From: a virus
Virus record (IMG/VR): IMGVR_UViG_3300045988_174094
Location: 44,932 to 108,931 of that record
Length of the DNA stretch: 64,000 bases
Reading direction: 5' to 3' (one strand)
The position numbers and the translations under genes were made by a program. The notes under the pieces were generated by a model that saw nothing but the letters and a program-made list of their open reading frames with translations, did no database searches and was not told the DNA's origin. How positions within the stretch are numbered: the stretch's first letter is position 1; each line of letters starts with the position of its first letter. Positions 7,550 to 44,408 of the stretch are shown here, piece after piece.

Positions 7550-7567
7550 TGCGTCAACTCTTTTTTT
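7537..7567 (+). terminator. intrinsic terminator, stop in loop
   Basis: gagttgacgc-gtaat-gcgtcaactc followed by T7. Confidence 0.8.
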
Positions 7568-7575
7568 ATATCAAT

Positions 7576-12330: not shown

Positions 12331-12345
12331 AGCGCGCACCAAAAT

Positions 12346-12360
12346 GTCACGTAACGTGAC
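12346..12360. repeat. GTCAy-N5-rTGAC box
   Basis: gtcacgtaacgtgac. Confidence 0.6.
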
Positions 12361-12370
12361 CGGCGCAATT

Positions 12371-12399
12371 TTGAAAAATCAACGAAAATATAGTATAAT
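12371..12399 (+). promoter_or_regulatory. promoter TTGAAA-17-TATAAT
   Basis: ttgaaaaatcaacgaaaatatagtataat. Followed by a ~140-nt leader before gene 12546. Confidence 0.65.
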
Positions 12400-12545
12400 A
12401 TATATAGAAACTGAGGGAAGAAGAAACGAAACCTCCACATAGTGGAACCGCGCATAAGCTGCGACTTACGTTCGATTATCTTCTTCCATTTCTAAAATCG
12501 GGGATATAAACCCATCTATTAGAAAATTGAAAGAAGGATACTAGT

Positions 12546-12914
12546 ATGACTAAGAGAGAATTTCTGAACACTATCGCTACCGCTGAAAACCTGCCCGCTG
12601 AACTGGTTGAATTCGCCGCACACGAGCTGGAAGTAATGAACGCTGCAAACGAGAAGAACCGCGCCAAGGCAGCTGAGAAGCGCGCCACAAAGGACGCAGA
12701 GAAGGAGCCTATTCGTAACGCCATTATGGACGTTATGACGAATGAGCCGCAGACCGCCACTATGCTCATCGAGGCAGCTGGCCTCACCGAAACCGTGAAG
12801 CCTCAGTCTATCCCTTCTCTTCTGAAACCCCTCATCGAGGCAGGAACGCTTGAGAAGGTCGATATGAAGATTCCGGAGAAGAAGGGAACTCAGAAGGGCT
12901 ATAAGCTTTCCTAA
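12546..12914 (+). CDS. winged-helix-like DNA-binding protein, paralog of 9249-9641
   Basis: N-terminus and length match the paralog. GC-rich codons. RBS AAGAAGGA. Confidence 0.8.
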   Translation: MTKREFLNTIATAENLPAELVEFAAHELEVMNAANEKNRAKAAEKRATKDAEKEPIRNAIMDVMTNEPQTATMLIEAAGLTETVKPQSIPSLLKPLIEAGTLEKVDMKIPEKKGTQKGYKLS

Positions 12915-24607: not shown

Positions 24608-25002
24608 ATTTTCTGGATTTCTTTTGTCTCCCAATTAGCCGCAGGCTCTTCTTTGAACCAAGGACTAATCCTCTTCCAGCTATAAGAGTATGGGAGCAAA
24701 GTATCATCATCAGGGTGTTGAATAATATTTGGAAACACAGTCAGCATTGGAATATGGTGAGTTCGAAAGTATTCAGTTATCATCAAATCATCATGTGGAA
24801 GAAGTTTCTCATTAGTTTGAGTATCTATCCAATCAAAACATGGTTTTATGAATTTCCTAGGAAGAATTATGCCTGGGCCATGAAGATAATTTGTACGGTA
24901 ATATGGCGACGTCTGCCCGGACCGGATCGCGATATACCGCCGTATCCCGTCGGTGTACCGCATCCCCTCCTCGATCCACATTCCCGGTTCAAAATAGATC
25001 AT
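24604..25002 (-). CDS. hypothetical protein
   Basis: 132-aa ORF. GC content rises toward its 5' end. Confidence 0.65.
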   Translation of the reverse strand: MIYFEPGMWIEEGMRYTDGIRRYIAIRSGQTSPYYRTNYLHGPGIILPRKFIKPCFDWIDTQTNEKLLPHDDLMITEYFRTHHIPMLTVFPNIIQHPDDDTLLPYSYSWKRISPWFKEEPAANWETKEIQKI

Positions 25003-25013
25003 GCTTGGCCCTC

Positions 25014-26138
25014 CTATCTTGTTATGATCCCAGATGGGTCCGTAAATGTTCCTTCTGCTACCTCTACAATAGGCGTATCAATTTTGTATGTTGCGATCGG
25101 CAGCCATGTTCCATCTTGCCCATTATCGATAAAGTCTCTCCCACGCAGTACCAGTTTGTCCTCGAAAACGTCGACCTGATATCCTTCTGAGTCCGCATAG
25201 ATCGTCGTAAGCGCTCCGCTCTGGATATCCCGCGGGACAGATAGTGACGGGATATGCACGGACTTGTACCCATCTGCGGCAGAATAATTTGCTTTCTTGT
25301 CGATTTCCTGTAGATAAAATTTCAGATGGGAGTGCCCGTGAAACCATACAACGTTTTTGTAGTGCTTCATGAGCGCCTCAAAGCAGTTCGCTTGCTTTTG
25401 GGTCGCCTCGGTGTCCCCCCTCCAGAAATTCGACTTGTAGTAGCCTCCGGCATTCCCGACTCCACCCCACGGAAATATGTGCTGGAACACGATGCAGCGT
25501 TTTCCGCGATTAGCTTCTAGCGTCTCGTACAGCCACTGCAATTCCGCGGCAGAAAACTGCTCACCTGGCAAGAAGTCTTTCGCGGTCTGGTTATAGCACG
25601 CGTAATTCCCAACCATTACAAAGACATCCTGCACAGTATCACTGTATGTCTTTCCAGTGTGCGAAAAATCATTTTCTTTCAGTTCGCCGTCCATCCCGAT
25701 ACCGTAGGAGTAGTACAACGGCTTCCCAGTATACTGCTGGATATAGCTGTCGACCACTGCTGCATTGATGGTCTCGTGATTCCCTGCGATCGCATACACG
25801 GGCTTTGTCGGAGCGTTTGCGTCAATGATGTTCTTGTACTGGCCCATTTGGCTTGCGGTCCCGTAGTCTGTTAGGTCCCCGCAGATACATGTAAATTTGA
25901 TGTCGTTGGCCTCCGCGAATTGCAAAGTCCGTTGGAAATCCTCCGCTGCTGTGTCATATGTGATATGCACGTCCGACAGAGCGAGGAAACTGTACTGCCG
26001 CCCGCTGGTTGGATATTTCATCCTCTGCGGGAGTTTTGACGCAGCGGTCTCCATTCCAAATTTATTCAGTAACCGCAGCCCTATTGCACCTGGTGGGGCT
26101 ATGTTTTCCGAGATAAACCCTTTATACGCATATGCCAT
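25014..26138 (-). CDS. metallophosphoesterase-domain protein in the fibre module
   Basis: ATG 26138 follows GGAGG. Motifs LSDVH, GDLTDYG, GNHE, GHSH. Confidence 0.75.
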   Translation of the reverse strand: MAYAYKGFISENIAPPGAIGLRLLNKFGMETAASKLPQRMKYPTSGRQYSFLALSDVHITYDTAAEDFQRTLQFAEANDIKFTCICGDLTDYGTASQMGQYKNIIDANAPTKPVYAIAGNHETINAAVVDSYIQQYTGKPLYYSYGIGMDGELKENDFSHTGKTYSDTVQDVFVMVGNYACYNQTAKDFLPGEQFSAAELQWLYETLEANRGKRCIVFQHIFPWGGVGNAGGYYKSNFWRGDTEATQKQANCFEALMKHYKNVVWFHGHSHLKFYLQEIDKKANYSAADGYKSVHIPSLSVPRDIQSGALTTIYADSEGYQVDVFEDKLVLRGRDFIDNGQDGTWLPIATYKIDTPIVEVAEGTFTDPSGIITR

Positions 26139-26139
26139 A

Positions 26140-27153
26140 CTATACCTCCGCGATCGGTTCGATATCTGCCATCGTCCCGTTGGTACTTGCATACACGACC
26201 GTCCCACTGCTTGGCATTTCCAGAGCGTTTGCCTGCGTGACGTAAGGGCTTCCCAACTGCTCCAGCACGATCTCGGCGATTGCCTCCTTGTCAGCCTGCG
26301 TCAGCGCTGCTTGCGCATATGTGATCCCGGTATCTACCCATGCGTTTGTAACGACCTCGGATGTCTCATTTGGGTTTTGATTGAGATAGATTTCGATTCC
26401 GTCCAGATTGGCCTCCGTCGCTACTGCTGGAGAATTGCTCCCCACAACCACAAGCATATTAAAGCGAATATACTTGATGTTGGAGTAAAAACTCAGCCTT
26501 TCCTCTGACGACGCGTCCATAGCTGTTGTCTCCGCATATCCCACCTTGAATTTTTTGTATGCGCCGTCATCGATCATGTTGACACTATTCAAGGTTGCTG
26601 GCGGAATGCTCATGTCATACCCCCCAAGGCACGCTTTACTTGCGTCGTAATAATATATTTTAGTATACAGAGGCCAACCTTCCGACGCTTTCAGATTCCA
26701 ACCCTTAAACCATAACCAGAACGGATCTGTGCTTAGATTCACCGGAATGTAGTCCGAAATTGCCATGCCGTTCTGGCCGCTCGTTGCAACACCATCTGAC
26801 TTGAGTCTCATATTGAGCTGTACGTTGGACTTAGAAAAAACATTTTCCGCGGTTTGCTGCTGCTCTGTAGATTGCTGATATGCCCACAGATGCCCGTTTT
26901 CCCCGATGTATACCTTGCTAGTATCTGTCATATCCGAAGTGCTCGCAGCAAATGCCGGAGCTGCCGCAAGCACTGCACTCCCCGTCCTAAGCTTTGTCGG
27001 AACGCCGTTCTCGTCAACTTGCACGATTTTGACCAGTTTCCCTGCGGATGCACCAGTGATGCCAAGGCCTATATCTGTACCAGTCTCCACCTGCACCGCC
27101 TTGCCCCCATACGTCGCAAACTTTCCGTCCTTGACCAGCACCTTAACCGCCAT
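26140..27153 (-). CDS. tail-fibre/receptor-binding candidate (GC-rich)
   Basis: 337-aa ORF abutting other fibre genes. No recognisable motif. Confidence 0.7.
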   Translation of the reverse strand: MAVKVLVKDGKFATYGGKAVQVETGTDIGLGITGASAGKLVKIVQVDENGVPTKLRTGSAVLAAAPAFAASTSDMTDTSKVYIGENGHLWAYQQSTEQQQTAENVFSKSNVQLNMRLKSDGVATSGQNGMAISDYIPVNLSTDPFWLWFKGWNLKASEGWPLYTKIYYYDASKACLGGYDMSIPPATLNSVNMIDDGAYKKFKVGYAETTAMDASSEERLSFYSNIKYIRFNMLVVVGSNSPAVATEANLDGIEIYLNQNPNETSEVVTNAWVDTGITYAQAALTQADKEAIAEIVLEQLGSPYVTQANALEMPSSGTVVYASTNGTMADIEPIAEV

Positions 27154-27694
27154 CGCTTACCACCTCGACGTAGAGTCCCACCAGCTCGCTCAGCGCGTGG
27201 TAGACCGGATTCCCAGTATCTCTTGTGCCCCGGTACAGCACGCCGCCCTGCGTGTAATACTTTCCTGCGTAGAGCTCCATGTTCCCCTCGTAGGGGATCG
27301 GGTCGTACTTTGTCCCGTCGTGCTCCTCGTCGATGCGGGCGTACAGGCTCTCCGTGCCCGCTGCGCCCGGCACCCACGTAGACTGTGACGTGTGCGCTTG
27401 CAGCACCTTGTAGAGCTTGCCGCCGGATACCAGCTTGTCTCCCGCCGCGTAGTCCTTGCCGCTCTCCCATGCAGGGTAAAAAGCAATCATCCGCAGCGCT
27501 GTCTGATCGTCCACCACCAGCGTGTTGATCTGCTGTTTGATAAGCATTGCACCGACCTCACCAACTGTAAGAGGTCTATTCTTCTCTGCTGCTTCGTAGC
27601 AGAGCCGCACCTCCTCCATCTCCGCGATTTCTTCCGCCGTCATGTCGCGGATCACGCCGTTTTCGTAAATTCTCACATTACATCCCCTCCTCAA
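27143..27694 (-). CDS. fibre-associated protein with CBM5/12-like carbohydrate-binding motif
   Basis: AWESGKDYAAGDKLVSGGKLYKVLQAHTSQSTWVPG. Probable GTG start a few codons inside the ORF. Confidence 0.65.
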   Translation of the reverse strand: MRRGCNVRIYENGVIRDMTAEEIAEMEEVRLCYEAAEKNRPLTVGEVGAMLIKQQINTLVVDDQTALRMIAFYPAWESGKDYAAGDKLVSGGKLYKVLQAHTSQSTWVPGAAGTESLYARIDEEHDGTKYDPIPYEGNMELYAGKYYTQGGVLYRGTRDTGNPVYHALSELVGLYVEVVSDGG

Positions 27695-28200
27695 TACATG
27701 ACCTGGACATCAAACTCAACATCCTTTGTGACTTGACCACTTGATTCAATCTTAACCGACTTAATTTGATTAAATAGCTTTAATGTTTGTCCATATCCAA
27801 TGATGGTAACAGAACTTTTAGTAAGATTGCCCAAATAATGAAGGTCTTCTTTGTTTATTGTCATCATCGTTGCAGGGAAATTGATTCTGTCTTCATTGTC
27901 TCGTTTAAAGTAACTTACGACAAGCTTTCCATTCTCCACAGTTAACAAAAGTCTCAAGTATCCAGCAGTGTTTCGAGCGAAGGTACCCAAGCTAAACACA
28001 TAGTCTCCGTTTACAGTCAAGGTTGCGGTCAGGTCCGCATCTATTGACGATACCGCAAGCGGACTGTATATAAACACTCCTTTAACTTGATGATCCGACA
28101 ATTTTTCCCCGTTTGGTGACATGGTGAAATCGAAAACATTCAACCCACCTTCCGGGACAATCACTTTATCCCATGTGTGCCACGACGCCTCAGCCGCCAC
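27691..28200 (-). CDS. hypothetical structural protein (AT-rich, unlike its neighbours)
   Basis: 169-aa ORF with overlapping stop and start to its neighbours. Confidence 0.7.
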   Translation of the reverse strand: MAAEASWHTWDKVIVPEGGLNVFDFTMSPNGEKLSDHQVKGVFIYSPLAVSSIDADLTATLTVNGDYVFSLGTFARNTAGYLRLLLTVENGKLVVSYFKRDNEDRINFPATMMTINKEDLHYLGNLTKSSVTIIGYGQTLKLFNQIKSVKIESSGQVTKDVEFDVQVMY

Positions 28201-28798
28201 CTGCGCCTACCACCTGATACACGCCCCGGTAGTCGTTCGTCGAAAGTCCGTATATCGCGAGGCCTTCGTTGACCAACGATACCTGATTGAGCTGGCTTAC
28301 TACCCCGTTTGTGATCACAAGCATATCGTTAACTGCGATCCAGGCATCCTGTATCGTCACGGTGCCTGTACACAGCTCCATGCTGCCGCCGGAGCCGAAG
28401 CACATCCATACCACGCCGTTTTCCGGTAAATCCGCCGCCGGAATGCCGATGTAGCCGCTCACGGCGCTCATCGCCTTGAGTGCTCCGCCGGAGCCGGAGC
28501 CGGAAGAGCCAGACCCGCCCGCCGGAATGTTTATCGTCAGCGCCGCAGAGCCGTCATAAGTCCCCGTCGCCGCGCCCGTAAACGTCAGAGCATTCGGATT
28601 TTTCAGCGCCGTCGGAAAGTCTGCAAGCGTGAACTCAATCCCATCAGCTATGACCTTTCCCGCGATCTCCGTCTTGTCAGCCTCGGTTAGTTCAGGTCCA
28701 GAATAATCCTCCAAGACATTTACGTCATTCGCGCCGAGACTCCCCTTCGCTTTTATCTTTTCATAAACTTCTCTATTTGGAAATTTATTTATTACCAA
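28190..28798 (-). CDS. tail-fibre protein (GC-rich, Gly/Ser linker)
   Basis: LKNPNALTFTGAATGTYDGSAALTINIP and GGSGSSGSGSGG. Confidence 0.7.
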   Translation of the reverse strand: MVINKFPNREVYEKIKAKGSLGANDVNVLEDYSGPELTEADKTEIAGKVIADGIEFTLADFPTALKNPNALTFTGAATGTYDGSAALTINIPAGGSGSSGSGSGGALKAMSAVSGYIGIPAADLPENGVVWMCFGSGGSMELCTGTVTIQDAWIAVNDMLVITNGVVSQLNQVSLVNEGLAIYGLSTNDYRGVYQVVGAGGG

Positions 28799-28846
28799 AT
28801 TAGAGGGCGTAATTGAAGTAGAAATTTTTCTCGCCTCCTTTTGAAC

Positions 28847-34467: not shown

Positions 34468-34532
34468 TTGTTTTCTCCTTTCTATTTCTATTTTGATAAA
34501 AAGAAAGCGCCCAGTCAAGGGCGCCGTTCCTA

Positions 34533-34823
34533 TTACATCCAACTCCAAAGAAAATCGAAAAGATTATCAGAAGAAATGGAGGTATGAAAAGTTCCGTAAT
34601 CATTACAGAATTTCTCAAGAGCTTCTGTATACGCCTTTCGTGCGTCTACGTAAGTCTTTCGCAGTTCATCAATTTCCTGCGCGCGAGCTTTGCGCTCGTC
34701 TGCACGCTTCTGTTCTGCCACTCTTTTCTCTTCTCGTTTTGCAATAACCTTCTTTTCAGCCTCTTCAAGGTCATCCATGCTATCATAGAGTTTGTTTGTA
34801 ATATCGCTATAAAATCTTGCCAT
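34533..34823 (-). CDS. hypothetical coiled-coil protein
   Basis: 96-aa ORF with GGAGAGGA RBS. Confidence 0.7.
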   Translation of the reverse strand: MARFYSDITNKLYDSMDDLEEAEKKVIAKREEKRVAEQKRADERKARAQEIDELRKTYVDARKAYTEALEKFCNDYGTFHTSISSDNLFDFLWSWM

Positions 34824-34859
34824 AATAGTTCCTCTCCTATCATTTCAAAATTTTGACGT

Positions 34860-35692
34860 TCCTTTCCGTCAAAAGGGATTTGTTCCCTGAAAATAAAATA
34901 TCTATGGGTTCTTCAACCTACCGAAAACTAACTTCAAGTATATTCAGTCAAGAGCACCATGGGGCTGAGCATACGCAGCGTCCCGCGCATACTTCCCATA
35001 GTCGCACCTTCGTGCGCGTAGTCTCTTCTGGATTGATTACCAGAACCTTTCACCAGCCATTCAGCAAGTTCTTGATTTTTATTATCAATAATCATTATTG
35101 TGCTTGTCTTTGGCTACTCAGAGGCCACATACACGTCTTATACACGAATTTCTTCGCTTCACAACAAACTGGCTTGTGGTTATTTCCTAATCAAATGATT
35201 TACCCACAGTCACCAACTAAGGGAGATTAGGATTCAGCTTTCAATTATCTTGAAAGCCTCTATTACGCCAGCGACGCGCGTCCTACCTTTACTCGCGTTA
35301 GTCTCGATGCCGCCTCTTAGGGTTGGGAGTCCATCCTCTATGGCACGCAACTCACGTCACGCGCGCCGGTCAGTATCCACAAGTATCCTTGTTCGTTGTC
35401 TGCCGCCCTTTCCAAGACGCCTCGACATTCCTAGTCACAGAATGTTTGTCATCGAGTTCTAAGATATTTTATTTTCAAGGAACAAATAGAGAATTTAGCG
35501 TTACCCAACATCTACCACGTGGAGGTATTCTCTTTTAGATGTCTTGCGCACGAACGAGTTGCACGTTGTCTCCAGATAATGAGTCTGGCGTCCTACTGTT
35601 AGACGACCTGCGCAGTATTTAGGTCATTTATCCTATAACTCCCACGACCAAGGATGCACTTTTGGTAGCATTTCCACCAGTCTAAAACTGGT
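34860..35692 (-). ncRNA. element B: ~830-nt ORF-free, GC-enriched candidate structured RNA downstream of tRNA(CAA)
   Basis: No RBS-linked ORF on either strand. The central part (35230-35460) is much richer in GC than the flanks. Shares boxes GAGTAGCCAAAGA (rc 35107-35119) and TAGTTGGT (rc 35212-35219) with element A. Confidence 0.35.
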
Positions 35693-35769
35693 TGGTAGCA
35701 CTGGTGGAATTCGAATCCACACTTTACGGATTTTGAATCCGCTATCTCTGCCAATTGGATTACAGTGCC
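35693..35769 (-). tRNA. tRNA with anticodon CAA (Leu by anticodon) but short 5-nt variable loop; CCA encoded
   Basis: rc reads GGCACTG-TA-ATCC..AGAT-A-GCGGA-TTCAAAA-TCCGT-AAAGT-GTGGA-TTCGAAT-TCCAC-CAGTGCT-A-CCA. Confidence 0.75.
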
Positions 35770-36164
35770 ATATACAAGCCTTTTGTTTCACATAGGAGGT
35801 AAAAGGCTCCAAAGACCCAGCATGAGTTTTATAGGTAAGCCCACGCATCGAAACTTCTGAACGTCACGCCATGTCAGATAGCGCCTATCTATTTATATTG
35901 CGCCGTAGGAACTGCGCGAGATGGTTTTTGAACTTCAGAACCACGAAACTGATTTGACTAACAAATTCCTTTTCTCCAATGGCGGCTCCCTAGTTTATCT
36001 TGGCTACTCCGAAGGTCGCGACTCCTTCGCCGTCGTTGTTTCATCAGACATCTCTACTGCCTGAAGACTTGTCTGTCTCGAAATTTTGGATATTACATTG
36101 GCCACTGTAATACCACTATTAGTCTCCCTCTGTGTTTATGCAGGCTTGGGACTGCTTACCAACT
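35770..36164 (-). ncRNA. element A: ~395-nt ORF-free spacer between two tRNAs, candidate structured RNA
   Basis: GC-enriched. Hairpin cgaagg-agtcgcga-ccttcg is followed by GAGTAGCCAAGA (rc 35998-36009). Confidence 0.3.
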
Positions 36165-36237
36165 ACCCGAAGGCCGGATTTGAACCGGAAGCTCCGCTTT
36201 ATCAATGCGGTATTCTAACCAGTTGAACTACATCGGA
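36165..36237 (-). tRNA. tRNA-Ile (anticodon GAT), several stem mismatches
   Basis: rc reads TCCGATG-TA-GTTC-AACTGGTTA-GAAT-A-CCGCA-TTGATAA-AGCGG-AGCT-TCCGG-TTCAAAT-CCGGC-CTTCGGG-T. Mismatches at 6:67, 31:39 and 49:65. Confidence 0.6.
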
Positions 36238-36324
36238 TAGTTTTCAAGTAAGCCACATTAGGACTTTCCGAGAGAGGAACTGGTAGAAAGGAAAAGACCA
36301 GTTCCTCTCTCATCTTGTATAAAT

Positions 36325-36353
36325 ATTATACCAAAATTTTAGGAATTTTTCAA
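36325..36353 (-). promoter_or_regulatory. class-B promoter driving tRNA-Ile(GAT)
   Basis: rc reads TTGAAA-17-TATAAT followed by ATTTATACAAG. The transcript begins with a 15-bp hairpin, gagagaggaactggt..accagttcctctctc. Confidence 0.65.
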
Positions 36354-36514
36354 ATTTCGTTTTCTTCTTTTTCTCGATTCTTATGTTTGATTTTGCGCGA
36401 ATATGGTTTTCGAGAAGGAAAAACTTGGCACTTTTTACGAAGTGCTGTCCACTTCTCAAGTTGTTCGGGAGACATTTTCTTTACTTCGGGCTTCCACGCG
36501 GTTTCAGTTTCCAT
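36350..36514 (-). CDS. small basic protein, 54 aa
   Basis: METETAWKPEVKKMSPEQLEKWTALRKKCQVFPSRKPYSRKIKHKNREKEENEI. GAGGGAAA RBS. Below the track cutoff. Confidence 0.5.
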   Translation of the reverse strand: METETAWKPEVKKMSPEQLEKWTALRKKCQVFPSRKPYSRKIKHKNREKEENEI

Positions 36515-36540
36515 TTTCGTTTCCCTCACTTTCTGTAAAT

Positions 36541-36569
36541 ATTATATCAAAAAATCAGAAAAATTTCAA
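36541..36569 (-). promoter_or_regulatory. class-B promoter
   Basis: rc reads TTGAAA-17-TATAAT followed by ATTTACAGAAA. Confidence 0.6.
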
Positions 36570-36649
36570 ACATTTACGAGAAGAAATTTTCAAATGTCCG
36601 GCTATTACGGGTCGCCCAAAGGTGGACAAGCTATTGATTCCAAATAAAA

Positions 36650-36725
36650 TGGTGCGCTTGGGGCAATTCGAATGCCCGACCCATTGCTTAAAAGGCAATT
36701 GCTACTACCACTGAGCTACAAGCGC
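36650..36725 (-). tRNA. tRNA-Lys (anticodon TTT), CCA encoded
   Basis: rc reads GCGCTTG-TA-GCTC..TAGC-A-ATTGC-CTTTTAA-GCAAT-GGGTC-GGGCA-TTCGAAT-TGCCC-CAAGCGC-A-CCA. Confidence 0.85.
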
Positions 36726-37068
36726 ATATAAAACCAGCTCAGCTTTATCTCGCCATTAACGACTGCTAGTGCGCCGGATACTATATACTCGTATCTTTAC
36801 CACTTCTAAAACAACTTACTAATCACGAGCAGCGATGATTAGTAATAAAAAATATTTAGGCAAGTTCGCTACGCTTACCCCGTGGAAGATCCACGCACGA
36901 TTTTCCCTGACACAGATTACCCTATCATATTAGCACCCCGATAGGTTCTCTCACTATATATCGTGTTCTTCCCCTTTCATTTTCTGCTTCGAAAGCCAAT
37001 CGCTTGCTCTCTACTCCAAGACTTCGGGCGGGAGATGGGGCGGTAGTTTAATGACTTGCCGAGGTCGA
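36726..37068 (-). ncRNA. element C: ~340-nt ORF-free spacer between tRNAs, candidate structured RNA
   Basis: GC-enriched. Contains GGAGTAGAGAGCAAGC (rc 37002-37017) and hairpins such as gtggatcttccac. Confidence 0.3.
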
Positions 37069-37144
37069 TGGTCCGGATGTCAAGATTTGAACTTGCATCT
37101 AGCGATTATAAGTCACTGGCTCTGACCAATTGAGCTACATCCGG
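37069..37144 (-). tRNA. tRNA-Ile (anticodon TAT, reads AUA), CCA encoded
   Basis: rc reads CCGGATG-TA-GCTC-AATTGGTCA-GAGC-C-AGTGA-CTTATAA-TCGCT-AGAT-GCAAG-TTCAAAT-CTTGA-CATCCGG-A-CCA. Confidence 0.75.
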
Positions 37145-37471
37145 ATAAAAGTGGAGATTTTCTTTCGGTGGCCTCCTACGAGGTAGACCCCTAGGCAATC
37201 TGTGGAAATCTCCTAACCCTCGACAAAAGCTCCATCATACTACCGAAATTGCCCCGGAAATATGACATCATAGCTTGGCCTAAGCGTCTTGCGCTTAACC
37301 CTATAATCGGTTTCTAGCTACGGGATAGCCAACTCCCGCCCACCTCTTTGCTTCCTCAAAGTGTAGCTAATACTTTGTCTTGATTGCTCGGTTTTTATAA
37401 AGCTGGTAAGCCTTCCCAACTGAGGCCACTTCGGACATTTACGGTAAGTTTCCGTCGTGCGCCTAAATAGC
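37145..37471 (-). ncRNA. element D: ~325-nt ORF-poor leader upstream of tRNA-Ile(TAT), candidate structured RNA
   Basis: Track ORF 37318-37572 lacks an RBS and overlaps the better-supported mini-gene. The sequence is GC-enriched. Confidence 0.25.
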
Positions 37472-37606
37472 TCAATAAGAGCTAGATAATAGCTTTCTAA
37501 GTCTTCGCTTGAGCTTTGCGAGAATTGGCGCGTTATCTCCGCGCTGTTCAAGAAGATGGATGCGATTTTCAAGAATTGATACTTCTGTCTTCCAATGATA
37601 AGTCAT
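37472..37606 (-). CDS. small coiled-coil protein, 44 aa
   Basis: MTYHWKTEVSILENRIHLLEQRGDNAPILAKLKRRLRKLLSSSY. RBS GAAAGGAAAAAG. First gene after promoter 37641-37669. Confidence 0.45.
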   Translation of the reverse strand: MTYHWKTEVSILENRIHLLEQRGDNAPILAKLKRRLRKLLSSSY

Positions 37607-37640
37607 TTCTTTTTCCTTTCCTCAACCATTTTGTATAAAT

Positions 37641-37669
37641 ATTATACTCGAAATTTAGCTATTTTTCAA
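37641..37669 (-). promoter_or_regulatory. class-B promoter at head of the tRNA island
   Basis: rc reads TTGAAA-17-TATAAT followed by ATTTATACAAA. Confidence 0.65.
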
Positions 37670-38572
37670 ATCTCGAAAACTTAGAGTATTCAATGTAATC
37701 TGATACATCAGCCAGTCATTATAACCAGGTAGTCTATAAAGTTGATTGAAAACCTCCTGCGACAGGCTTCTGTAAATCTTTGTAAAGTGCGTCGACACAT
37801 GCCAATCAAGGCCAAAATAAAATTCATCATTTACTGTAGTTTCAATCAAAGGTTCAAGCTTGTTATCAAAATAGCTCTCAACCATCGAAAGAATTACGAA
37901 GAAATCCTTCTCAGGCACTGGTTGGTTGAAGATTCTAAAAGAAGCATCCTTAATATCATCACAGAAAAGACAATGATGGCAATTCTTCAGAAAAGAAGAG
38001 TAATAGACCTCTTCACATCCAGAAGAACTGAAAATTCCGACGCAATTCTCAATACTATCAACTCGCGCGCACTTCTGACTTTTCTTCACATGCGATGCTT
38101 TATAAATTTCTTTTGAACTTTGAATGTCCATTCCAGTATCAACTAAACTACTATTCACAATATATTCTGACTTTAGAACGCCATCACTTCCCTCAACTGT
38201 AGCACTAGAAGCGACATAATTACTATTTCTAATATCACTACAATTGTCAATGTTTCCACTTAGATAAATGTGGTCAGAATGAATAACTTTTTCACTTTCT
38301 TCTACATCATAACTTTCATAGACGCTAGAAGAACTATCAATATTCAAAACTTCACAGTATTTTTCTTTTTCTTTGGTAGTCCAAGGTAGCATTCGGTAGC
38401 CCCAGTATAATGCCTCAAGCCATGGACTATAGTTACCAGCAATTGCTTCGGGGCCAATTTCTTCAAGAAAATCTAGTGCTTCAACACCATTTGGAAATCT
38501 TCCAACAAATTCTTGAATTTTCTCTTCGCGCGCGCTATATTTTCGTAGCAACTCAACTGTTAGATACATCAA
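37655..38572 (-). CDS. hypothetical protein with Ser/Asn-rich repetitive middle region
   Basis: 305-aa ORF. Confidence 0.75.
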   Translation of the reverse strand: MMYLTVELLRKYSAREEKIQEFVGRFPNGVEALDFLEEIGPEAIAGNYSPWLEALYWGYRMLPWTTKEKEKYCEVLNIDSSSSVYESYDVEESEKVIHSDHIYLSGNIDNCSDIRNSNYVASSATVEGSDGVLKSEYIVNSSLVDTGMDIQSSKEIYKASHVKKSQKCARVDSIENCVGIFSSSGCEEVYYSSFLKNCHHCLFCDDIKDASFRIFNQPVPEKDFFVILSMVESYFDNKLEPLIETTVNDEFYFGLDWHVSTHFTKIYRSLSQEVFNQLYRLPGYNDWLMYQITLNTLSFRDLKNS

Positions 38573-40161: not shown

Positions 40162-40581
40162 TTATTTAGATTCCTTCATTCTTTTGCGATATTCTCGATA
40201 GATGTCGTCATTATGATATTTTGAATGGACAAGAAACTTCTCTTGAAATAAGTCCTCTATACAATTGAGATTATCCATTTCCCAATAAGGAATTCGATAA
40301 AGAGGTATCTTATGCGCAAGACAGTAAGAATTTTTTATACGGTCACGCTCTTGTGCTTTTGTAAAGTCACTTCGCTTTTTGTGGAAAAATTTTGTATACT
40401 CAAAGTGCTGGAATCCGTCTAATTCACAACAGACCTCTTTTTGAGGGAAATAGAAATCAAAACGAAGATAGCCGTGCTTGAGGTCTTTGAAAGTCTTTTC
40501 TCTTATAAAAGGAACGCGCGCATCTGTAAGGATACGCGCGATTTTTTCTTCAAATTTACTCAACCAAAAATTGTCTCCCAC
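40162..40581 (-). CDS. PD-(D/E)XK-type endonuclease-like protein (free-standing)
   Basis: LRFDFYFPQKEVCCELDGFQHF.. matches the YDFYLP..IEYMGRQHY core of the terL intron ORF. Confidence 0.65.
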   Translation of the reverse strand: MGDNFWLSKFEEKIARILTDARVPFIREKTFKDLKHGYLRFDFYFPQKEVCCELDGFQHFEYTKFFHKKRSDFTKAQERDRIKNSYCLAHKIPLYRIPYWEMDNLNCIEDLFQEKFLVHSKYHNDDIYREYRKRMKESK

Positions 40582-41654
40582 TGGCAGTCACGCGGGACTT
40601 TATCCAAACGCCAACTAACGAATTTTGGATGACGAAGACCTTGCGTTTCACGCATAACTTCCATCGCAGTAATTTCTGCGACCTTCCCAATATAGTCCTT
40701 CCAATTCAACAAAATTTCATCATCTAAGCCGCTCAAATTACCAATCTGAACCGGTTTTCCATCCTTATACGCACCAATCTTTAGACTACCAGCACCACGC
40801 ATATAATACATTTTTGTGACGGGTTCAATTGTATCACCCTCAAAATATTCCTTATAATAGTCTCCGCACATAAGTTCATGCGTAACAGTATTTTGCCAAT
40901 ACTGCCAGTTTTCGATTTCTTTCCCAGAATAAAGACGGGTCGGAGGATTCCCACCATAGATAAAGACATCAAGTGTTTCTTGAAGTTCTTTCTTCAGTTT
41001 AAGAGTCTTCCGCGCGCTGCGTTTACCTGGTTGTGGTTTAGAGTCACGTCGAGTAATAACAACACCTTCTCCACCTTCAGCCAAAATTTCTTGATATTTC
41101 TGCCACAACTCAGCGCCTTCATAGTATTGAGCAAACTCAACATAATCTGACTTAGGAAGGTTCTGAATCATTGTAAAACGCTCTTCTGCTGTCTTATTCA
41201 AATAGCTTTCTCCGTCATAAGCCCAAATATCAAAAACATAATAGTGAAGTTTTTCTCCTGCTTCTTGGCGCGCGATTGCCTTAGGCGCAAGGCAACCCAT
41301 GATTGTCGTAGTATTATAGGAACCCTCATTCTTTGGGAAATAGACTTCGCCAAGTAGACAAGTTCCTCGCGGAAGAGCTTCAAAGAATGGCTTCAAATGA
41401 GGAACCCAATCAACCTTATTTAGATATCCTCCCTTTACGGACTTAGACCGACCCTGTAAACGAAGTTCACCATCTTCAGAAATTATGGCGCGATAGTATG
41501 CTCCATCCATCTTACGCGCCCCAAGATAATCTCCAGAATAGACCATGTTGATTGCTTCTCGTTTCTTTCTTTCAGGCGTATAGGAAGAAGTAAAACTCCA
41601 ATACTTCTCAGCTTCAAGATTTTCAAAGTCAATTTTATCAATTACAAAACTCAT
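40560..41654 (-). CDS. ATP-dependent DNA ligase
   Basis: ATG 41654 (ATGA overlap). Motif I ARKMDG, motif III LLGEVYF, motif IV EGVVITR, motif V LKLKK. Confidence 0.8.
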   Translation of the reverse strand: MSFVIDKIDFENLEAEKYWSFTSSYTPERKKREAINMVYSGDYLGARKMDGAYYRAIISEDGELRLQGRSKSVKGGYLNKVDWVPHLKPFFEALPRGTCLLGEVYFPKNEGSYNTTTIMGCLAPKAIARQEAGEKLHYYVFDIWAYDGESYLNKTAEERFTMIQNLPKSDYVEFAQYYEGAELWQKYQEILAEGGEGVVITRRDSKPQPGKRSARKTLKLKKELQETLDVFIYGGNPPTRLYSGKEIENWQYWQNTVTHELMCGDYYKEYFEGDTIEPVTKMYYMRGAGSLKIGAYKDGKPVQIGNLSGLDDEILLNWKDYIGKVAEITAMEVMRETQGLRHPKFVSWRLDKVPRDCQWETIFG

Positions 41655-41917
41655 TTCAGAAGCTCCTCCTTCGTATAAGCCCAAGTCTGTCCATAATCTT
41701 TTCTCAAATAGGTATTATAATCAGGGCCAGGCCATCCCCAGACAAATAAAAATTCTTCAGAAGCTACTTCTGGATTAGCAGGCCATTCAATTTCTTTTGT
41801 CTTAATTTCAATAATTTGGTCTTCGGGCGTTCGATAATGCTTCAAATTATAAACAGGGCGGCCATACATATAACCATAAATATATTCATGGCTCATAACA
41901 TCTTCTCTAAAACTCAT
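41651..41917 (-). CDS. hypothetical protein
   Basis: 88-aa ORF, first gene after promoter 41944-41972. Confidence 0.7.
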   Translation of the reverse strand: MSFREDVMSHEYIYGYMYGRPVYNLKHYRTPEDQIIEIKTKEIEWPANPEVASEEFLFVWGWPGPDYNTYLRKDYGQTWAYTKEELLK

Positions 41918-42199: not shown

Positions 42200-42431
42200 T
42201 ATTGTTCCACTCCCACCTTGTTTTATCGTCAACATCAATTACAAAATATTCTTTGTCAATCTGGTCAATTCGGAGTTGATGAATTCCATAGGTATTAAGT
42301 TCAGGTAAAAAGTATGCTAAATCTTCAATATTAAGACAAACATCGCCTTCTATTAGTTGACCATAAATATCATCATTTACTCTTTTTCTTTCTTCATAAT
42401 AATCTTTATATTCATTACTCATATTACCCAA
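42180..42431 (-). CDS. hypothetical protein
   Basis: 83-aa ORF. Confidence 0.65.
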   Translation of the reverse strand: MGNMSNEYKDYYEERKRVNDDIYGQLIEGDVCLNIEDLAYFLPELNTYGIHQLRIDQIDKEYFVIDVDDKTRWEWNNNEEIYL

Positions 42432-43350
42432 CCCTCATATTCAACTGTTTTTGCGTCCCATAAAGCTCAATATAAAATTTTTCTCTTTCTGTTTGCTTTT
42501 CGCGCGCAACCTCTTCCAAAATTTCAAAAGTATAGTTTTGAATTCCATGAGAAGCCATATGTACATGAAGAGTTGAACGAGCAACTTTCTCCATACCAAG
42601 CGCGGTTTGGACGTGTGATTGCCAACGTGTTCCAAAATCAGTCGTTTTCCCAATATAAGATTCACCAGTTGGAATATAGGTAATCTTGTAAATACCACCA
42701 ACTGCGCGACCACCTGTTACTCGCTTTATCATTTCCTTCGTCGCGCGCGAAACCATTGTATCCCACATTAGTTTTGGAACTATTTCACGATGCCGAAGCT
42801 TTGGTGCCAAACTTTTCAAGACTTCTATATCTTCGATTTCTTCTGGTAAAAGACAAATGCGATAGAAATCCTCTTTTTCCTCAACTTCACGCTCGCGCCG
42901 GATCGCTTCATTCACCGCTTGACGTTTTGCTTGAAATTGAGAAAGTTCGCACTTCACCTTTTCAAGTTCTAATTCATAATCTCTTTTATCTTGGTCAATT
43001 TGCGCTTTATCTATGATGAGCTGATTTTGAAGTTGCTGGAGTTTTTGTAAACGGAGTTCTTGGATTTCTTCTTCAATTGAAGATTTTCTATTCACTTGAA
43101 AAGTTTCTTGCTTAGCAATAATTTCATTCAATTGCTGAAGTCGCTCATTTCTCTTTTTGTGATTATCTTCATAAACTTTTTGTTCTGCCACATCCAAATC
43201 TTTCCAAAAATTTTCAGCATCTTTTTTATTCTTTTCTTTTAGTTGCTCAATTTCATAATTTTTTTGCTTTATTTTCTTTTTTTGTCCAATGAAAAGAATT
43301 AGGAAAACAACAGCAGAAACCATAAAAAGTAGTGCTGATATTTTTTCCAT
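42424..43350 (-). CDS. membrane-anchored coiled-coil protein with C-terminal GIY-YIG/T5orf172-like nuclease domain
   Basis: ATG 43350 follows GGGAG. TM helix ISALLFMVSAVVFLILFIG, about 150 aa of coiled coil, then GGIYKITYIPTGESYIGKTTDFGTRWQSH. Confidence 0.75.
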   Translation of the reverse strand: MEKISALLFMVSAVVFLILFIGQKKKIKQKNYEIEQLKEKNKKDAENFWKDLDVAEQKVYEDNHKKRNERLQQLNEIIAKQETFQVNRKSSIEEEIQELRLQKLQQLQNQLIIDKAQIDQDKRDYELELEKVKCELSQFQAKRQAVNEAIRREREVEEKEDFYRICLLPEEIEDIEVLKSLAPKLRHREIVPKLMWDTMVSRATKEMIKRVTGGRAVGGIYKITYIPTGESYIGKTTDFGTRWQSHVQTALGMEKVARSTLHVHMASHGIQNYTFEILEEVAREKQTEREKFYIELYGTQKQLNMRVG

Positions 43351-43352
43351 AT

Positions 43353-44408
43353 TTACTCCCAACTCATCACTGAGTTTCTTCGAGGTTTCTTTTTTACGAC
43401 TGGTTTAGTAAACCAAATTAGGCGATCACGCGCGCGAGTCGCCGCAACATAAGAAATACAGACTTCTTCTTCGTTCCACATTCGGCTATCATAGACAGCT
43501 ACATAGCGTGTCTCAAGTCCTTTGCTTGAGTGAATGGTAAGAACCTTCACAGTATCTGCTTTCATCTTCTCGCTTAGCTCATCTTTTGACAGGTCACCTT
43601 GCTTGAATGTATCACATGGAATTCCAGCATCAGTCAACTTATCAAAAATATCATCTACTTCCGCATTTGTGCGCGCGAGCACCATCCAATCGCCATAATT
43701 GGAAGTAGACTTGATTTCATCAACAAGATACTTGATAGAAAAAGGAACTTCAATGACCCTCCCGCGCACTCCACGCATCGGAATAGATAAATCACTCATT
43801 TTATTTTTTCTAATAATATCCCGCGCAAAATCAAGAATGTCACTACCATTACGATAGTTTTCATCCATTGAGTATATCGTCGCACCGAGTTTTTCCGCCC
43901 ATTCCATCAATAGGTCTGGCCGGCTGCCATTCCAACGATAGATACACTGGCGCAAGTCATAGACAACAAAATATTCAGCACTTTTTATAATAGAAAAAAT
44001 AAAGTCAAACTGGTCTTTATTGCTATCTTGCGCCTCATCCAAAAGACAAATATCAAGAGAAGGAAAAGCATTTGGATGTTGAAGAGCTAGCTTGAATAGG
44101 TCATCAAAACGTTCATCAGCAAGATACTTTCCTGCCTCTGTAACACCCGCGCGCAGTAGACATCTTGCGCAATAGGAGTGAATGGTTCCAATCCAAATTA
44201 CGTCACTATTTTCAACATTCAATCTACTGCGAATTTCCGCCGCAGCCATGTTTGTAAAGGTAAAAGCGACCAGCTTCTTCGCGCACGAAATAGATTGACG
44301 GATTTTCTCGGTTAGTAATCTCGTTTTCCCGCTACTTGCACAAGATTGAACAAATACAACAGACGCTGACGAAGCCAAAATTTCTTCTTGTGTTTTGCTT
44401 AGCTCCAA
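43353..44408 (-). CDS. UvrD/Rep-like superfamily-1 DNA helicase
   Basis: CASSGKT (Walker A), LLDEAQD, NYRNGSDIL, TIHSSKGLE, YVAATRARDRL. Confidence 0.85.
   Translation of the reverse strand: MELSKTQEEILASSASVVFVQSCASSGKTRLLTEKIRQSISCAKKLVAFTFTNMAAAEIRSRLNVENSDVIWIGTIHSYCARCLLRAGVTEAGKYLADERFDDLFKLALQHPNAFPSLDICLLDEAQDSNKDQFDFIFSIIKSAEYFVVYDLRQCIYRWNGSRPDLLMEWAEKLGATIYSMDENYRNGSDILDFARDIIRKNKMSDLSIPMRGVRGRVIEVPFSIKYLVDEIKSTSNYGDWMVLARTNAEVDDIFDKLTDAGIPCDTFKQGDLSKDELSEKMKADTVKVLTIHSSKGLETRYVAVYDSRMWNEEEVCISYVAATRARDRLIWFTKPVVKKKPRRNSVMSWE

Follow-up and report, generated by a model that had tools for sequence, protein, structure and literature searches.

Between its tRNA genes, a 64,000-nt stretch of viral DNA (IMG/VR record IMGVR_UViG_3300045988_174094, positions 44,932 to 108,931; referred to as the window) carries long spacers almost devoid of open reading frames, and it was not evident what these spacers specify. 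A reading of the sequence alone had proposed structured RNAs, either members of a known large class or something new. Both parts of this proposal hold. The known classes ROOL and drum are present, and three further modules, designated A-rest, C-core, and D_rest, lack a match in Rfam while each possesses covariation-supported helices. The island is also more composite than had been supposed. According to the explanation we favor, and which we regard as likely on the whole, these 2.8 kb belong to a large phage of the human gut, probably with a host among the Bacillota, and form an island of RNA genes in which three near-identical putative promoters yield polycistronic precursors with tRNAs alternating with structured non-coding RNAs.

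The arguments originally offered for structured RNAs are weaker than the conclusion they were meant to support. The spacers are indeed richer in GC than their immediate flanks (44-48% versus 36% in the promoter and mini-gene stretches), but the enrichment is modest: the window has a mean GC content of 39.6% with a standard deviation of 5.7% (350-nt windows), and 10-15% of the windows elsewhere are at or above the values of the spacers. Sequence boxes believed to be shared among spacers look like chance occurrences. TAGTTGGT is found three times in the window, 1.2 times being expected, and this was matched in 12 out of 100 shuffles; the relatives of spacer A do not keep its GAGTAGCC box, the majority having GGAGGAGCCGAG. 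Folded singly, A, C, and D gave energies no different from those of shuffled sequences (z = -1.0, +0.5, and -1.1, respectively).

More informative were the searches for known RNAs. The four spacers had been labelled B (34860-35692), A (35770-36164), C (36726-37068), and D (37145-37471). Spacer B proved to contain a fifth tRNA, tRNA-Met, a probable theta ribozyme and a full-length ROOL RNA, and spacer D the unclassified module D_rest and a drum RNA. The initial 43 nt of spacer A form the 3' half of a twister ribozyme; the remainder is A-rest, which occurs in two allele types (type 1 and type 2) of about 60% identity. The Rfam search recommended in the sequence-only reading detected ROOL with 285.5 bits (threshold 99.1, E = 2e-64, model positions 1-574 of 574) and drum with 55.4 bits (threshold 43, full model 1-112); the scores are 272-286 bits for ROOL in nine relatives and 53-57 bits for drum across all relatives. 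The GOLLD model, also suggested, gave no match at E <= 10 in the region 34500-37900. A hammerhead ribozyme, defined by the conserved core CUGAUGA...GAAA and three stems, was considered for spacer A on account of a CUGAUGA motif and rejected, as there was no Rfam match at E <= 10 and the motif is not kept in type-2 alleles.

ARAGORN confirmed the four minus-strand tRNAs at the positions proposed, but four was an undercount (Table 1). The T loop of the additional tRNA-Met is atypical and ARAGORN missed this gene in the window, although in relatives it predicts tRNA-Met(CAT) at the corresponding position; the Rfam tRNA model recognized it above the threshold of 29 bits. Hidden tRNAs, for which a search had been advised, are represented by tRNA-Met in spacer B, whereas no tRNA-like remnants were found in A, C, and D by the Rfam search at E <= 10. 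The 76-nt allele of tRNA-Ile(UAU) is missing in the ten closest relatives, which contain a 95-nt tRNA-Ile(UAU) instead.

Table 1 Predicted and detected features of the RNA-gene island (positions refer to the window)
Feature	Position	Strand	Remarks
Putative promoter 1	37641..37669	-	TTGAAA-17-TATAAT; 11/12 consensus matches
Mini-gene 2	37472..37606	-	44 aa; RBS-linked ORF
D_rest	37277..37471	-	~195-nt module; ~165-nt conserved core
drum RNA (RF02958)	37149..37276	-	Rfam covariance model
tRNA-Ile(UAU)	37069..37144	-	ARAGORN; Rfam 60.5 bits; encoded CCA (37071-37069)
Spacer C	36726..37068	-	Conserved core ~37067-36844; 3' part variable
tRNA-Lys(UUU)	36650..36725	-	ARAGORN; Rfam 62.8 bits
Putative promoter 2	36541..36569	-	11/12 consensus matches; TG extension
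Mini-gene 1	36350..36514	-	54 aa from ATG
Putative promoter 3	36325..36353	-	11/12 consensus matches; TG extension; overlaps end of mini-gene 1
Leader hairpin	36271..36310	-	14 bp; 5' end of transcript
Predicted type-P1 twister with tRNA-Ile(GAU) in stem P3	36121..36265	-	Rfam (3' half) and covariation
Twister P1	36265-36262/36124-36121	-	
Twister predicted cleavage site	between U36260 and A36259	-	
Twister P2	36257-36254/36134-36131	-	
Twister P3	36251-36248/36159-36156	-	4 bp
Twister acceptor-extension helix	36242-36238/36165-36161	-	5 bp
tRNA-Ile(GAU)	36164..36238	-	ARAGORN; nested in twister P3
Twister P4	36155-36140	-	Loop UCCCAAGC
Twister GAGGG	36130-36126	-	
A-rest	35770..36120	-	~350 nt (type-2 alleles ~420 nt)
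tRNA-Leu(CAA)	35693..35769	-	ARAGORN; Rfam 57.6 bits
tRNA-Leu/tRNA-Met spacer	35614..35692	-	79 nt; kept in 5 relatives
tRNA-Met(CAU)	35545..35613	-	Rfam 43.7 bits; CCA-less
Probable theta ribozyme	35488..35543	-	Minimal, P4-less HDV-like; G1 = 35543
ROOL RNA (RF03087)	34887..35480	-	Rfam covariance model; full length
Two hairpins with short U runs after ROOL	34851..34885	-	From sequence

Three near-identical matches to the sigma70-type consensus end at 37641, 36541, and 36325, where promoters had been placed, their activity being predicted only. These matches share the strand of the tRNAs and spacers, which supports the co-transcription assumed earlier. Promoter 1 would serve mini-gene 2, D_rest, drum, tRNA-Ile(UAU), C, and tRNA-Lys, and promoter 3 the twister with tRNA-Ile, A, tRNA-Leu, tRNA-Met, theta, and ROOL. 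The leader hairpin shows two compensatory pairs in type-2 alleles (CTGGT/ACCAG to CAGGA/TCCTG). The hairpins beyond ROOL could possibly constitute the end of the transcription unit; a terminator scan reported the second of them on the plus strand only. Both short RBS-linked ORFs described before are contained in the ORF list. Mini-gene 1 is kept in relatives and mini-gene 2 shows 92-98% nucleotide identity there; a family search gave no match for either.

Two self-cleaving ribozymes, which had escaped notice, are predicted in the island, a twister at tRNA-Ile(GAU) and a theta (HDV-like) ribozyme after tRNA-Met. The 3' half of the twister matches every conserved nucleotide of the Rfam twister-P1 consensus, and a 5' half, UAA-UGUG-GC, is located upstream of tRNA-Ile(GAU). 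Since the two halves flank the tRNA, it is placed inside stem P3. The 5' half reads UAAUGUGGC, compared to UAAUGUAGC or UAAUGCAGC in 20 ordinary viral twisters. Twisters are characterized by about ten nucleotides in L1 and L4 conserved to more than 97% and by the U-A cleavage dinucleotide, all of which were detected here (UAA, GC, GUCCCAAGCC, UAAA, and GAGGG). In the GCC motif, U occupies the third position, a change compensated by its partner in P3. No essential stem is lacking, and P1, P2, and P4 are 100% paired in 14 distinct sequences. Among these, compensatory changes affect three of four pairs in P1, one of four in P4, and one of three in one pseudoknot; P2 is invariant. P1 is AGUC/GACU in type-1 and AUGGAUU/AAUCCAU in type-2 alleles, P4 shifts from GCAG/CUGC to GCGG/CCGC, and of the two pseudoknots (T1 and T2, connecting L4 to L1) CCC:GGG becomes UCC:GGA in type 2, GC:GC being invariant. 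For the whole structure of 47 pairs (twister, extension, and cloverleaf), 11 pairs with double changes were counted versus 2.7 in shuffles (0/500), and pairing dropped from 94% to 33-40% once partners were slid. Essentially all of this covariation stems from a single divergent lineage with two type-2 sequences, and few independent events are therefore represented. The minimum free energy fold of one allele (L004) yields P1, P2, P3, and the cloverleaf.

The twister scored 29.2 bits, below the Rfam threshold of 67.2, and cmscan pushed the 5' half into the T arm of the tRNA. We would attribute the low score to the 100-nt insert; a twister with a 92-nt non-tRNA insert in P3 (L055) scores similarly low with 33.2 bits. 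Because the distal portion of P3 is the tRNA itself, folding of twister and tRNA is probably coupled. The 5-bp helix, in which the tRNA leader pairs with the discriminator and trailer, might impede RNase P or RNase Z, and in one lineage (L007) the nested tRNA has lost the T arm while the twister is still present. The nested tRNA may therefore not always work as a tRNA.

Theta ribozymes are minimal HDV-like ribozymes that adjoin the 3' end of tRNAs in gut phages (Kienbeck et al. 2024, PMC10879173). Their cleavage site is expected within +/-5 nt of the tRNA 3' end, and the G1 predicted here follows the discriminator of tRNA-Met (35545) by 2 nt. The nested double-pseudoknot fold can be formed, with P1 (GACAUCU/AGAUGUU, 7 bp including a G1-U wobble), P1.1 (possible pairing of the GG behind P1 with the CC in L3), P2 (AGAGAA/UUCUCU, 6 bp), and P3 (ACC/GGU, 3 bp, with L3 UCCACGU). 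C35498, the first residue of J4/2, is the predicted catalytic nucleotide, and GCUAAA aligns to GCUAAG of the Rfam consensus. The full HDV-F-prausnitzii model, with P4 deleted, gave 23.8 bits against a threshold of 44, a shortfall arguably caused by the missing P4. Our own descriptor recovers all helices, yet produces about three chance matches per shuffled window. The same element follows tRNA-Met in L003, L006, L007, and L042, and among the five near-identical copies one G-U to G-C change was observed. Taken together, the element is probably a theta self-cleaving ribozyme. Certain RNA ligases and CCA-adding enzymes were reported to be enriched in theta-carrying phages; neither a CCA-adding enzyme nor a DRB0094-type RNA ligase nor a suppressor tRNA was found in the window, and the lack of the two enzymes counts against the preferred reading.

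From this arrangement a processing scheme can be proposed. Host RNase P and RNase Z would cut the precursors at each tRNA, the tRNAs acting as punctuation, and the two ribozymes would supply additional cuts. Twister cleavage would sever the leader hairpin from the precursor of tRNA-Ile, A-RNA, tRNA-Leu, tRNA-Met, and ROOL and would also remove read-through from upstream promoters. Cleavage by theta at G35543 would trim the 3' trailer of tRNA-Met and leave a ribozyme-ROOL molecule with a 5'-OH, thereby defining the 5' end of ROOL. A more far-reaching version, tentative and on balance rather unlikely, regards the twister as a natural allosteric ribozyme gated or modulated by its tRNA domain, and A-rest, C-core, and D_rest as three new ncRNA classes working with ROOL. 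Cleavage would then occur only if the tRNA domain is correctly folded, or be modulated by host factors engaging this domain, such as RNase P, RNase Z, the synthetase, or modification enzymes. If true, whether the downstream A RNA and the ROOL nanocage RNA are released, and how stable they are, would be coupled to the state of host tRNA maturation.

The opposite view takes the twister and the HDV-like element for inactive relics or purely structural scaffolds and assigns all processing to host RNases; it appears unlikely. Folds would then be kept without cleavage, the twister merely presenting or stabilizing a tRNA-like domain. Both elements do score under their Rfam thresholds, P1 of type-1 alleles comprises just 4 bp, the GCC motif carries the U, and persistence of the twister next to the degraded tRNA of L007 indicates that the pair does not serve tRNA processing alone. 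However, the catalytic core is expected to be lost first in relics, and no twister nucleotide of known essential role is missing from any of the 14 sequences, namely the A following the scissile bond, the G in GAGGG, the loop UCCCAAGC, and UAAA. In addition, the active-site pseudoknot is maintained through compensatory change, and the change from GCC to GCU is offset in P3.

A-rest, C-core, and D_rest gave no Rfam match at E <= 10. Their structures were predicted from alignments of 7-9 related sequences, divergent homologs included, and these alignments were also used for the pair counts. By this measure, double changes exceeded those in shuffled alignments in all three modules (0/500 each), as had been demanded of structured RNAs: 21 of 68 pairs in A-rest (9.0 +/- 2.1 in shuffles), 8 of 45 in C-core (2.9 +/- 1.1), and 8 of 43 in D_rest (2.4 +/- 1.1). 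Pairing amounted to 95%, 97.5%, and 96%, and fell to 35-44%, 29-47%, and 36-51%, respectively, when partners were slid. Many pairs are G-U and would turn into A-C mismatches if the opposite strand were read, which places the RNAs on the tRNA strand. A-rest, which continues from the 3' end of the twister up to tRNA-Leu, was seen only in this phage clade, and D_rest has a divergent homolog in L034/L044. Spacer C is missing from the ten nearest relatives, but eight further phage contigs (82-219 kb) contain C-core, the tRNAs found there always being on its strand. On these sequence comparisons, the three modules are candidates for new RNA motifs.

The modules might instead be leaders or trailers that serve only the stability, processing order, or folding of neighboring tRNAs. 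We give this a small chance. The modules have no known function and always adjoin tRNAs of the same strand, and A-rest occurs only between one and the same tRNA pair; C-core, in contrast, is located beside different tRNAs in unrelated phages, once without a tRNA upstream, and contains unpaired blocks of 10-25 nt that are nearly invariant. Such conservation and lengths of 200-400 nt far exceed the needs of a tRNA leader, and equivalent positions in the array are held by ROOL and drum, which are independent RNA classes.

The island is a cassette mosaic carried by phages of the human gut, whose hosts are probably Bacillota; the gut origin is taken from record names, and DnaB shows affinity to Bacillota phages at about 30% identity. 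Cassettes are swapped among close relatives with breakpoints at tRNAs, and this shuffling among phages suggests that ROOL, drum, A-rest, C-core, and D_rest are independently useful. Homing endonuclease genes are located near the island. Such mosaicism, the neighboring endonuclease genes and the unremarkable folding energies would also fit spacers that have no function and derive from decayed tRNAs, scars of recombination, or leftover mobile elements, with structure as a by-product. This is very improbable, considering that compensatory substitutions exceed both shuffled and slid controls in all three modules, that C-core is about 85-95% identical across phages otherwise without detectable DNA similarity to the window, that two spacers contain bona fide ROOL and drum, and that the Rfam search at E <= 10 detected no tRNA remnants in A, C, and D. 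That the spacers encode small proteins overlooked by ORF criteria is hardly credible: besides the two genuine mini-genes, the only minus-strand ORF of at least 30 aa wholly inside a spacer is a 33-aa GTG ORF in A, discounted because 2-nt and 5-nt indels break its frame in relatives, and the spacers have no RBS-linked ORFs, indels of 1, 2, and 5 nt among close relatives break every frame, and substitutions are compensatory and concentrated at paired positions.

Compared to known systems, the preferred reading of an island of alternating tRNAs and structured RNAs adds further members to the established classes ROOL, drum, and theta, the last with the reservation made above. ROOL is known from phages near tRNA islands (Weinberg et al. 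2017, PMC5737381; Kretsch et al. 2025, PMC12286853) and forms an octameric nanocage according to cryo-EM (Kretsch et al. 2025). The RNA described here is no different, with its full-length model match and its location in a phage tRNA island beyond tRNA-Met. It starts 7 nt downstream of theta, and no paper linking ROOL to an HDV-like ribozyme directly 5' of it was found in a literature search. The drum RNA has the terminal stem followed by a short U run typical of its class (RF02958; Weinberg et al. 2017), which is reportedly associated with a particular protein family, but a tRNA gene follows 4 nt downstream rather than the transcript end. The theta element resembles published ones (PMC10879173) in its P4-less fold, the catalytic C in J4/2, the site 2 nt from the end of a CCA-less tRNA, and its carrier, a gut phage of the Caudoviricetes type, but unlike these it is located directly upstream of ROOL. 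The twister shares P1, P2, P4, both pseudoknots, the U-A dinucleotide, and the conserved L1 and L4 nucleotides with known twisters (RF03160; review PMC5408937). Their P3 is optional and normally a short hairpin (8-92 nt in the 20 other viral twisters), whereas here it is replaced by a complete tRNA of 73-75 nt, joined via a covarying 5-bp extension of the acceptor stem. A tRNA inside a twister stem was not described in the literature searched, and the arrangement is a new form of twister, with cleavage predicted. GOLLD, which carries tRNAs in its linker region (PMC12286853), is an earlier case of a tRNA placed inside a bigger structured RNA of phages, likewise close to tRNA islands; there the host of the tRNA is an 800-nt cage-forming RNA, here a catalytic core of 70 nt.

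The sequence-only reading had placed four minus-strand tRNAs in the island (34860-37471) and had proposed that the spacers between them, designated D, C, A and B, are structured RNAs of a known or a new class. All four tRNAs were recovered by ARAGORN, and a permissive Rfam search of 34500-37900 revealed a fifth, whose homologous site in relatives is called as tRNA-Met(CAT) by ARAGORN. The proposal on the spacers is supported as well: full-length ROOL RNA and drum RNA were detected, and the remaining parts show covariation. No further Rfam matches were obtained by the permissive search in spacers A and C and in the upstream half of D.

RNA features of the island, which lies on the minus strand
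Feature	Position	Search	Score
tRNA-Leu-CAA	35769-35693	ARAGORN	
tRNA-Ile-GAU	36238-36164	ARAGORN	
tRNA-Lys-UUU	36725-36650	ARAGORN	
tRNA-Ile-UAU	37144-37069	ARAGORN	
Fifth tRNA	35613-35545	Rfam, permissive	43.7 bits
ROOL RNA (RF03087), full-length	35480-34887	Rfam, curated threshold 99.1	285.5 bits, E = 2e-64
drum RNA (RF02958)	37276-37149	Rfam, curated threshold 43	55.4 bits
twister-P1 (RF03160), sub-threshold	36185-36122	Rfam, permissive	29.2 bits
HDV-F-prausnitzii, sub-threshold	35543-35487	Rfam, permissive	23.8 bits
A-rest, unclassified part of spacer A	36120-35770		
C-core, unclassified part of spacer C	about 37067-36844		
D_rest, unclassified part of spacer D	37471-37277		

The initial observation proved largely correct. 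The three promoters are located where they had been placed (37641, 36541 and 36325), and each agrees with the consensus at 11 of 12 positions. A conserved ORF is absent from the spacers, in which relatives carry indels of 1, 2 and 5 nt. The suggested GC enrichment is real relative to the promoter and mini-gene stretches (44-48% versus 36%) and to the window (39.6%), but it is not distinctive, 10-15% of other 350-nt windows being equally GC-rich. The sequence boxes thought to be shared between spacers, GAGTAGCCAA(A)GA and TAGTTGGT, are not conserved and are attributed to chance. Folding-energy Z-scores of A, C, and D were uninformative. A hammerhead ribozyme in spacer A, suggested by the motif CUGAUGA, was dismissed; Rfam gave zero matches and the motif is not conserved in the second (type-2) of the two allele types of this region.

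BLAST searches of GenBank phages in near and distant modes revealed no similarity at the DNA level except for tRNA-sized matches, and relatives were therefore drawn from IMG/VR and metagenomes. Ten IMG/VR relatives (9-121 kb) were retrieved via the flanking 305-aa and ClpP-like proteins, and further metagenome contigs, several labelled human gut, were added by pattern scans; all carry L-numbers here. A single GC-rich Methylobacterium match from the genome scan and the metagenome matches L045 and L048 were discarded as chance. With about 30% identity, the DnaB-like helicase resembles its counterparts in phages that infect Bacillus, Staphylococcus, Enterococcus, and Lactobacillus. Mapping window segments onto the relatives revealed a mosaic. 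Segments that recur, with 85-99% identity, are spacer A, D_rest, ROOL, drum, and the mini-genes. All ten relatives lack the 76-nt tRNA-Ile(UAU) and spacer C, and carry in their place tRNAs for Asn, Gly, and Ser, a 95-nt tRNA-Ile(UAU), and other long spacers. Spacer C is present instead in unrelated phage contigs. The 95-nt allele, found in L001-L010 (e.g. L001:11428-11522), has a long extra arm or insert, and tRNA-like genes with 2-nt anticodons were called by ARAGORN in relatives (e.g. L004:2496-2566). In the second phage clade, L031 contains Rfam tRNA matches of 100-124 nt with large insertions or introns (9924-10023, 12343-12460, and 12469-12592, minus strand), and in L031 and L032 a CCA-bearing tRNA 3' end precedes spacer C, a full tRNA being uncalled there. 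An HNH-type homing endonuclease gene (40162-40581, minus strand) and a GIY-YIG endonuclease gene (42424-43362, minus strand) are situated 3-6 kb upstream of the mosaic island, on either side of the genes for a UvrD-like helicase and a DNA ligase (40560-41684); these endonucleases could contribute to cassette shuffling.

The most surprising element of the island surrounds tRNA-Ile(GAU). In the cmscan alignment, the 3' half of the twister matches the consensus perfectly (GCAG-UCCCAAGC-CUGC, AUAAA, CACA, GAGGG), and the 5' half was placed in the T arm of the tRNA with many non-canonical pairs. Reading of the sequence revealed the missing 5' half upstream of the tRNA, AGUC-C-UAA-UGUG-GC-UUAC. It supplies P1 (AGUC/GACU), the predicted cleavage site (U^AA), P2 (UGUG/CACA), the second pseudoknot (GC), and P3 (UUAC/GUAA). 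The strands of P3 enclose a 5-bp extension of the acceptor stem (AACUA/UAGUU) and the entire cloverleaf. The features that define twisters (PMC5408937) are all present here, namely the essential stems P1, P2, and P4, a pair of pseudoknots, some ten invariant nucleotides, and a U-A dinucleotide as cleavage site; P3 is dispensable in the family. A permuted twister of type P3/P5, whose 5' half would be located downstream in spacer A, was rejected; that region has no complementary P2 strand, and the 5' half precedes the tRNA. Judged by its sequence, this twister with its nested tRNA extends a known class by a new variant.

Comparison of 14 distinct sequences (alignment A4) revealed that the twister helices are 100% paired in all of them. 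In the two type-2 alleles (L004, L034), P1 is replaced by AUGGAUU/AAUCCAU, three of four shared pairs being compensatory, P4 is GCGG/CCGC instead of GCAG/CUGC, and the active-site pseudoknot is UCC:GGA instead of CCC:GGG. Covariation is also seen in the acceptor-extension helix (AACU/AGUU, AGCC/GGCU, AAUC/GGUU). For the complete structure of 47 pairs, double changes were counted in 11 pairs compared to 2.7 +/- 1.4 in shuffled alignments (0/500 shuffles), and pairing dropped from 94% to 33-40% if the partners were slid by 1-3 columns. For the L004 allele, the MFE fold equals the centroid and recovers P1, P2, the helix of P3, extension, and acceptor stem, and all three arms (z = -2.5).

The nested tRNA changes in evolution as tRNAs do. 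Most copies have the anticodon GAU, but L040 and L043 have GGU (Thr-like), and L007 has lost the T arm. The anticodon loop of L039 (10550-10710) is aberrant, with 6 nt that include UCA. The identity of the nested tRNA therefore differs between close phages. Twenty other viral twisters found in IMG/VR have the same core pattern and an identifiable 5' half, located 8-92 nt upstream, and none of them encloses a tRNA; the twister of L055, with a non-tRNA insert of 92 nt, is likewise under-scored by Rfam (33 bits). In the largest relative island, that of L008, no ribozyme beyond the same twister was detected. The pattern GTCCCAAGCC...TAAA-CCGTT-GAGGG is common to about 20 small IMG/VR contigs (L066-L096), in which a UAA-P2-GC half is absent from the 400 nt upstream; this element may be a permuted (type P3/P5) twister or an unrelated conserved element.

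A second candidate ribozyme directly follows tRNA-Met (discriminator 35545), with the sequence G35543-ACAUCU / AAAAGAGAAU / ACC / UCCACGU / GGU / AGAUGUU / GGGUAACG-C35498-UAA / AUUCUCU. Predicted helices are P1 (7 bp including a G1-U wobble), P2 (6 bp), P3 (3 bp), and a vestigial P4; GG could pair as P1.1 with L3 cytosines, and the GCUAA motif holds the predicted catalytic C. The same element is located 3' of tRNA-Met in L003, L006, L007, and L042, with one change of G-U to G-C. Theta ribozymes, minimal HDV-like ribozymes of gut Caudoviricetes, reside within +/-5 nt of tRNA 3' ends (PMC10879173), and the element agrees with them in its predicted HDV-like fold, its gut-phage setting, and its location next to a tRNA. 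The HDV-like descriptor is loose, yielding about three chance matches per shuffled window, and a match starting on the right strand within 5 nt of any of the five tRNA ends has, by rough estimate, a chance of about 0.001. By sequence, ROOL and drum each add a member to a known class, and so does theta as a candidate ribozyme. The theta element ends 7 nt before ROOL, so that cleavage would leave a 5'-OH theta remnant on ROOL. Among the papers searched, no link between ROOL and HDV-like ribozymes was found.

Two other descriptor matches were treated as false, one at the T arm of tRNA-Gly in relatives and one at 40615-40549 (minus strand), which covers the last part of the ligase ORF and the first part of the HNH endonuclease ORF and is a probable false match within coding sequence. 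The latter element is conserved and recurs with variation in L001, L005, L009, and L039 at about 7257-7309, with P1 GYUGGCG/UGCCAGU and a covarying P3 (GUC/GAC, GUU/GAU). An RNA-repair ligase was also considered; 40560-41684 encodes an ATP-dependent DNA ligase and not a DRB0094 RNA ligase. A CCA-adding enzyme was found in none of the 28 ORFs checked.

Three modules, A-rest, C-core, and D_rest, are candidate new RNA motifs. Their structures were predicted from the same alignments of 7-9 related sequences that were used for counting, and the shuffle control ignores phylogeny. A-rest occurs as two allele types about 60% identical (nhmmer E = 2e-8) with alternative 3' ends. Of 68 pairs predicted by RNAalifold, 21 keep pairing via double changes compared to 9.0 +/- 2.1 after shuffling (0/500), and 95% of cells are paired versus 35-44% with slid partners. 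In one hairpin, GCGUGGG/CUCAUGC, GUAAAC/GUUUAC, and GUAAGU/GCUUAC surround a conserved ACCYAUAAA loop. A-rest was detected in the phage clade of the window only. C-core is common to eight other contigs of 82-219 kb, in which the tRNAs detected are always on the same strand. It contains long invariant blocks, e.g. CCCGYCCGAAGUCUUGGAGUAGA, GAAGCAGAAAAUGAAA, and GCGUAGCGAAC, and 45 pairs (97.5% paired), eight with double changes compared to 2.9 +/- 1.1 (0/500). For D_rest, including the divergent L034 copy, the values are 8 of 43 pairs versus 2.4 +/- 1.1 (0/500), with 96% of cells paired. Many G-U pairs are formed on the tRNA strand in all three modules; the opposite strand would give A-C mismatches. 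Complementarity between the 3' end of spacer C (GCUGAGCUGG) and the D-arm region of the next tRNA, tRNA-Lys (GCUCAGUGG; 36743-36677, minus strand), is probably a coincidence, because in L031 this C sequence is followed by another tRNA. On L101, a 165-kb phage contig with a C-core copy in its tRNA island, RAGATH-33 (7457-7569, plus strand, 138 bits) and RAGATH-18 (1595-1667, plus strand, 73 bits) were detected in the same island.

Elsewhere in the window, a group I catalytic intron was detected at 1240-1515 (minus strand; RF00028, 65.9 bits, threshold 50). The intron extends into the end of a 137-aa ORF (1481-1894) and is located downstream of a 331-aa ORF. A block at 24901-28800, in which GC reaches 62% (window mean 39.6%), has overlapping ORFs in both orientations as well as a metallophosphoesterase gene (25014-26207), and may be a horizontally acquired module.

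The sequence analysis shows the RNA identities and folds, their location on one strand, and promoters that match the consensus; a working model of the island can be proposed. Three transcription units would produce precursors in which tRNAs punctuate non-coding RNAs, and RNase P and RNase Z would cut the pieces free. The twister would sever a covarying 14-bp leader hairpin (36310-36271) together with upstream read-through, its P3 coupling the folding of twister and tRNA. Theta would trim tRNA-Met and fix the 5' end of ROOL.

ROOL forms a giant RNA-only cage (PMC12286853). In this island, a predicted self-cleaving ribozyme that would also trim a tRNA appears to determine where ROOL starts; such a cut would define ROOL transcript boundaries and tie ROOL production to tRNA processing. 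The three covariation-supported RNAs, one of about 350 nt and one common to very different gut phages, are candidate new RNA classes of the human gut virome. For annotation, ribozymes with large inserts appear to be missed at standard Rfam thresholds. Twisters are known by thousands, and their biological roles are still termed speculative (PMC5408937). A twister that encloses a tRNA and heads a tRNA/ncRNA operon suggests a concrete, testable role in transcript processing and would be a natural counterpart to engineered twister-aptamer switches. No description of a tRNA inside a twister was found in the literature searched; the nearest precedent is GOLLD, which carries tRNAs in its linker.
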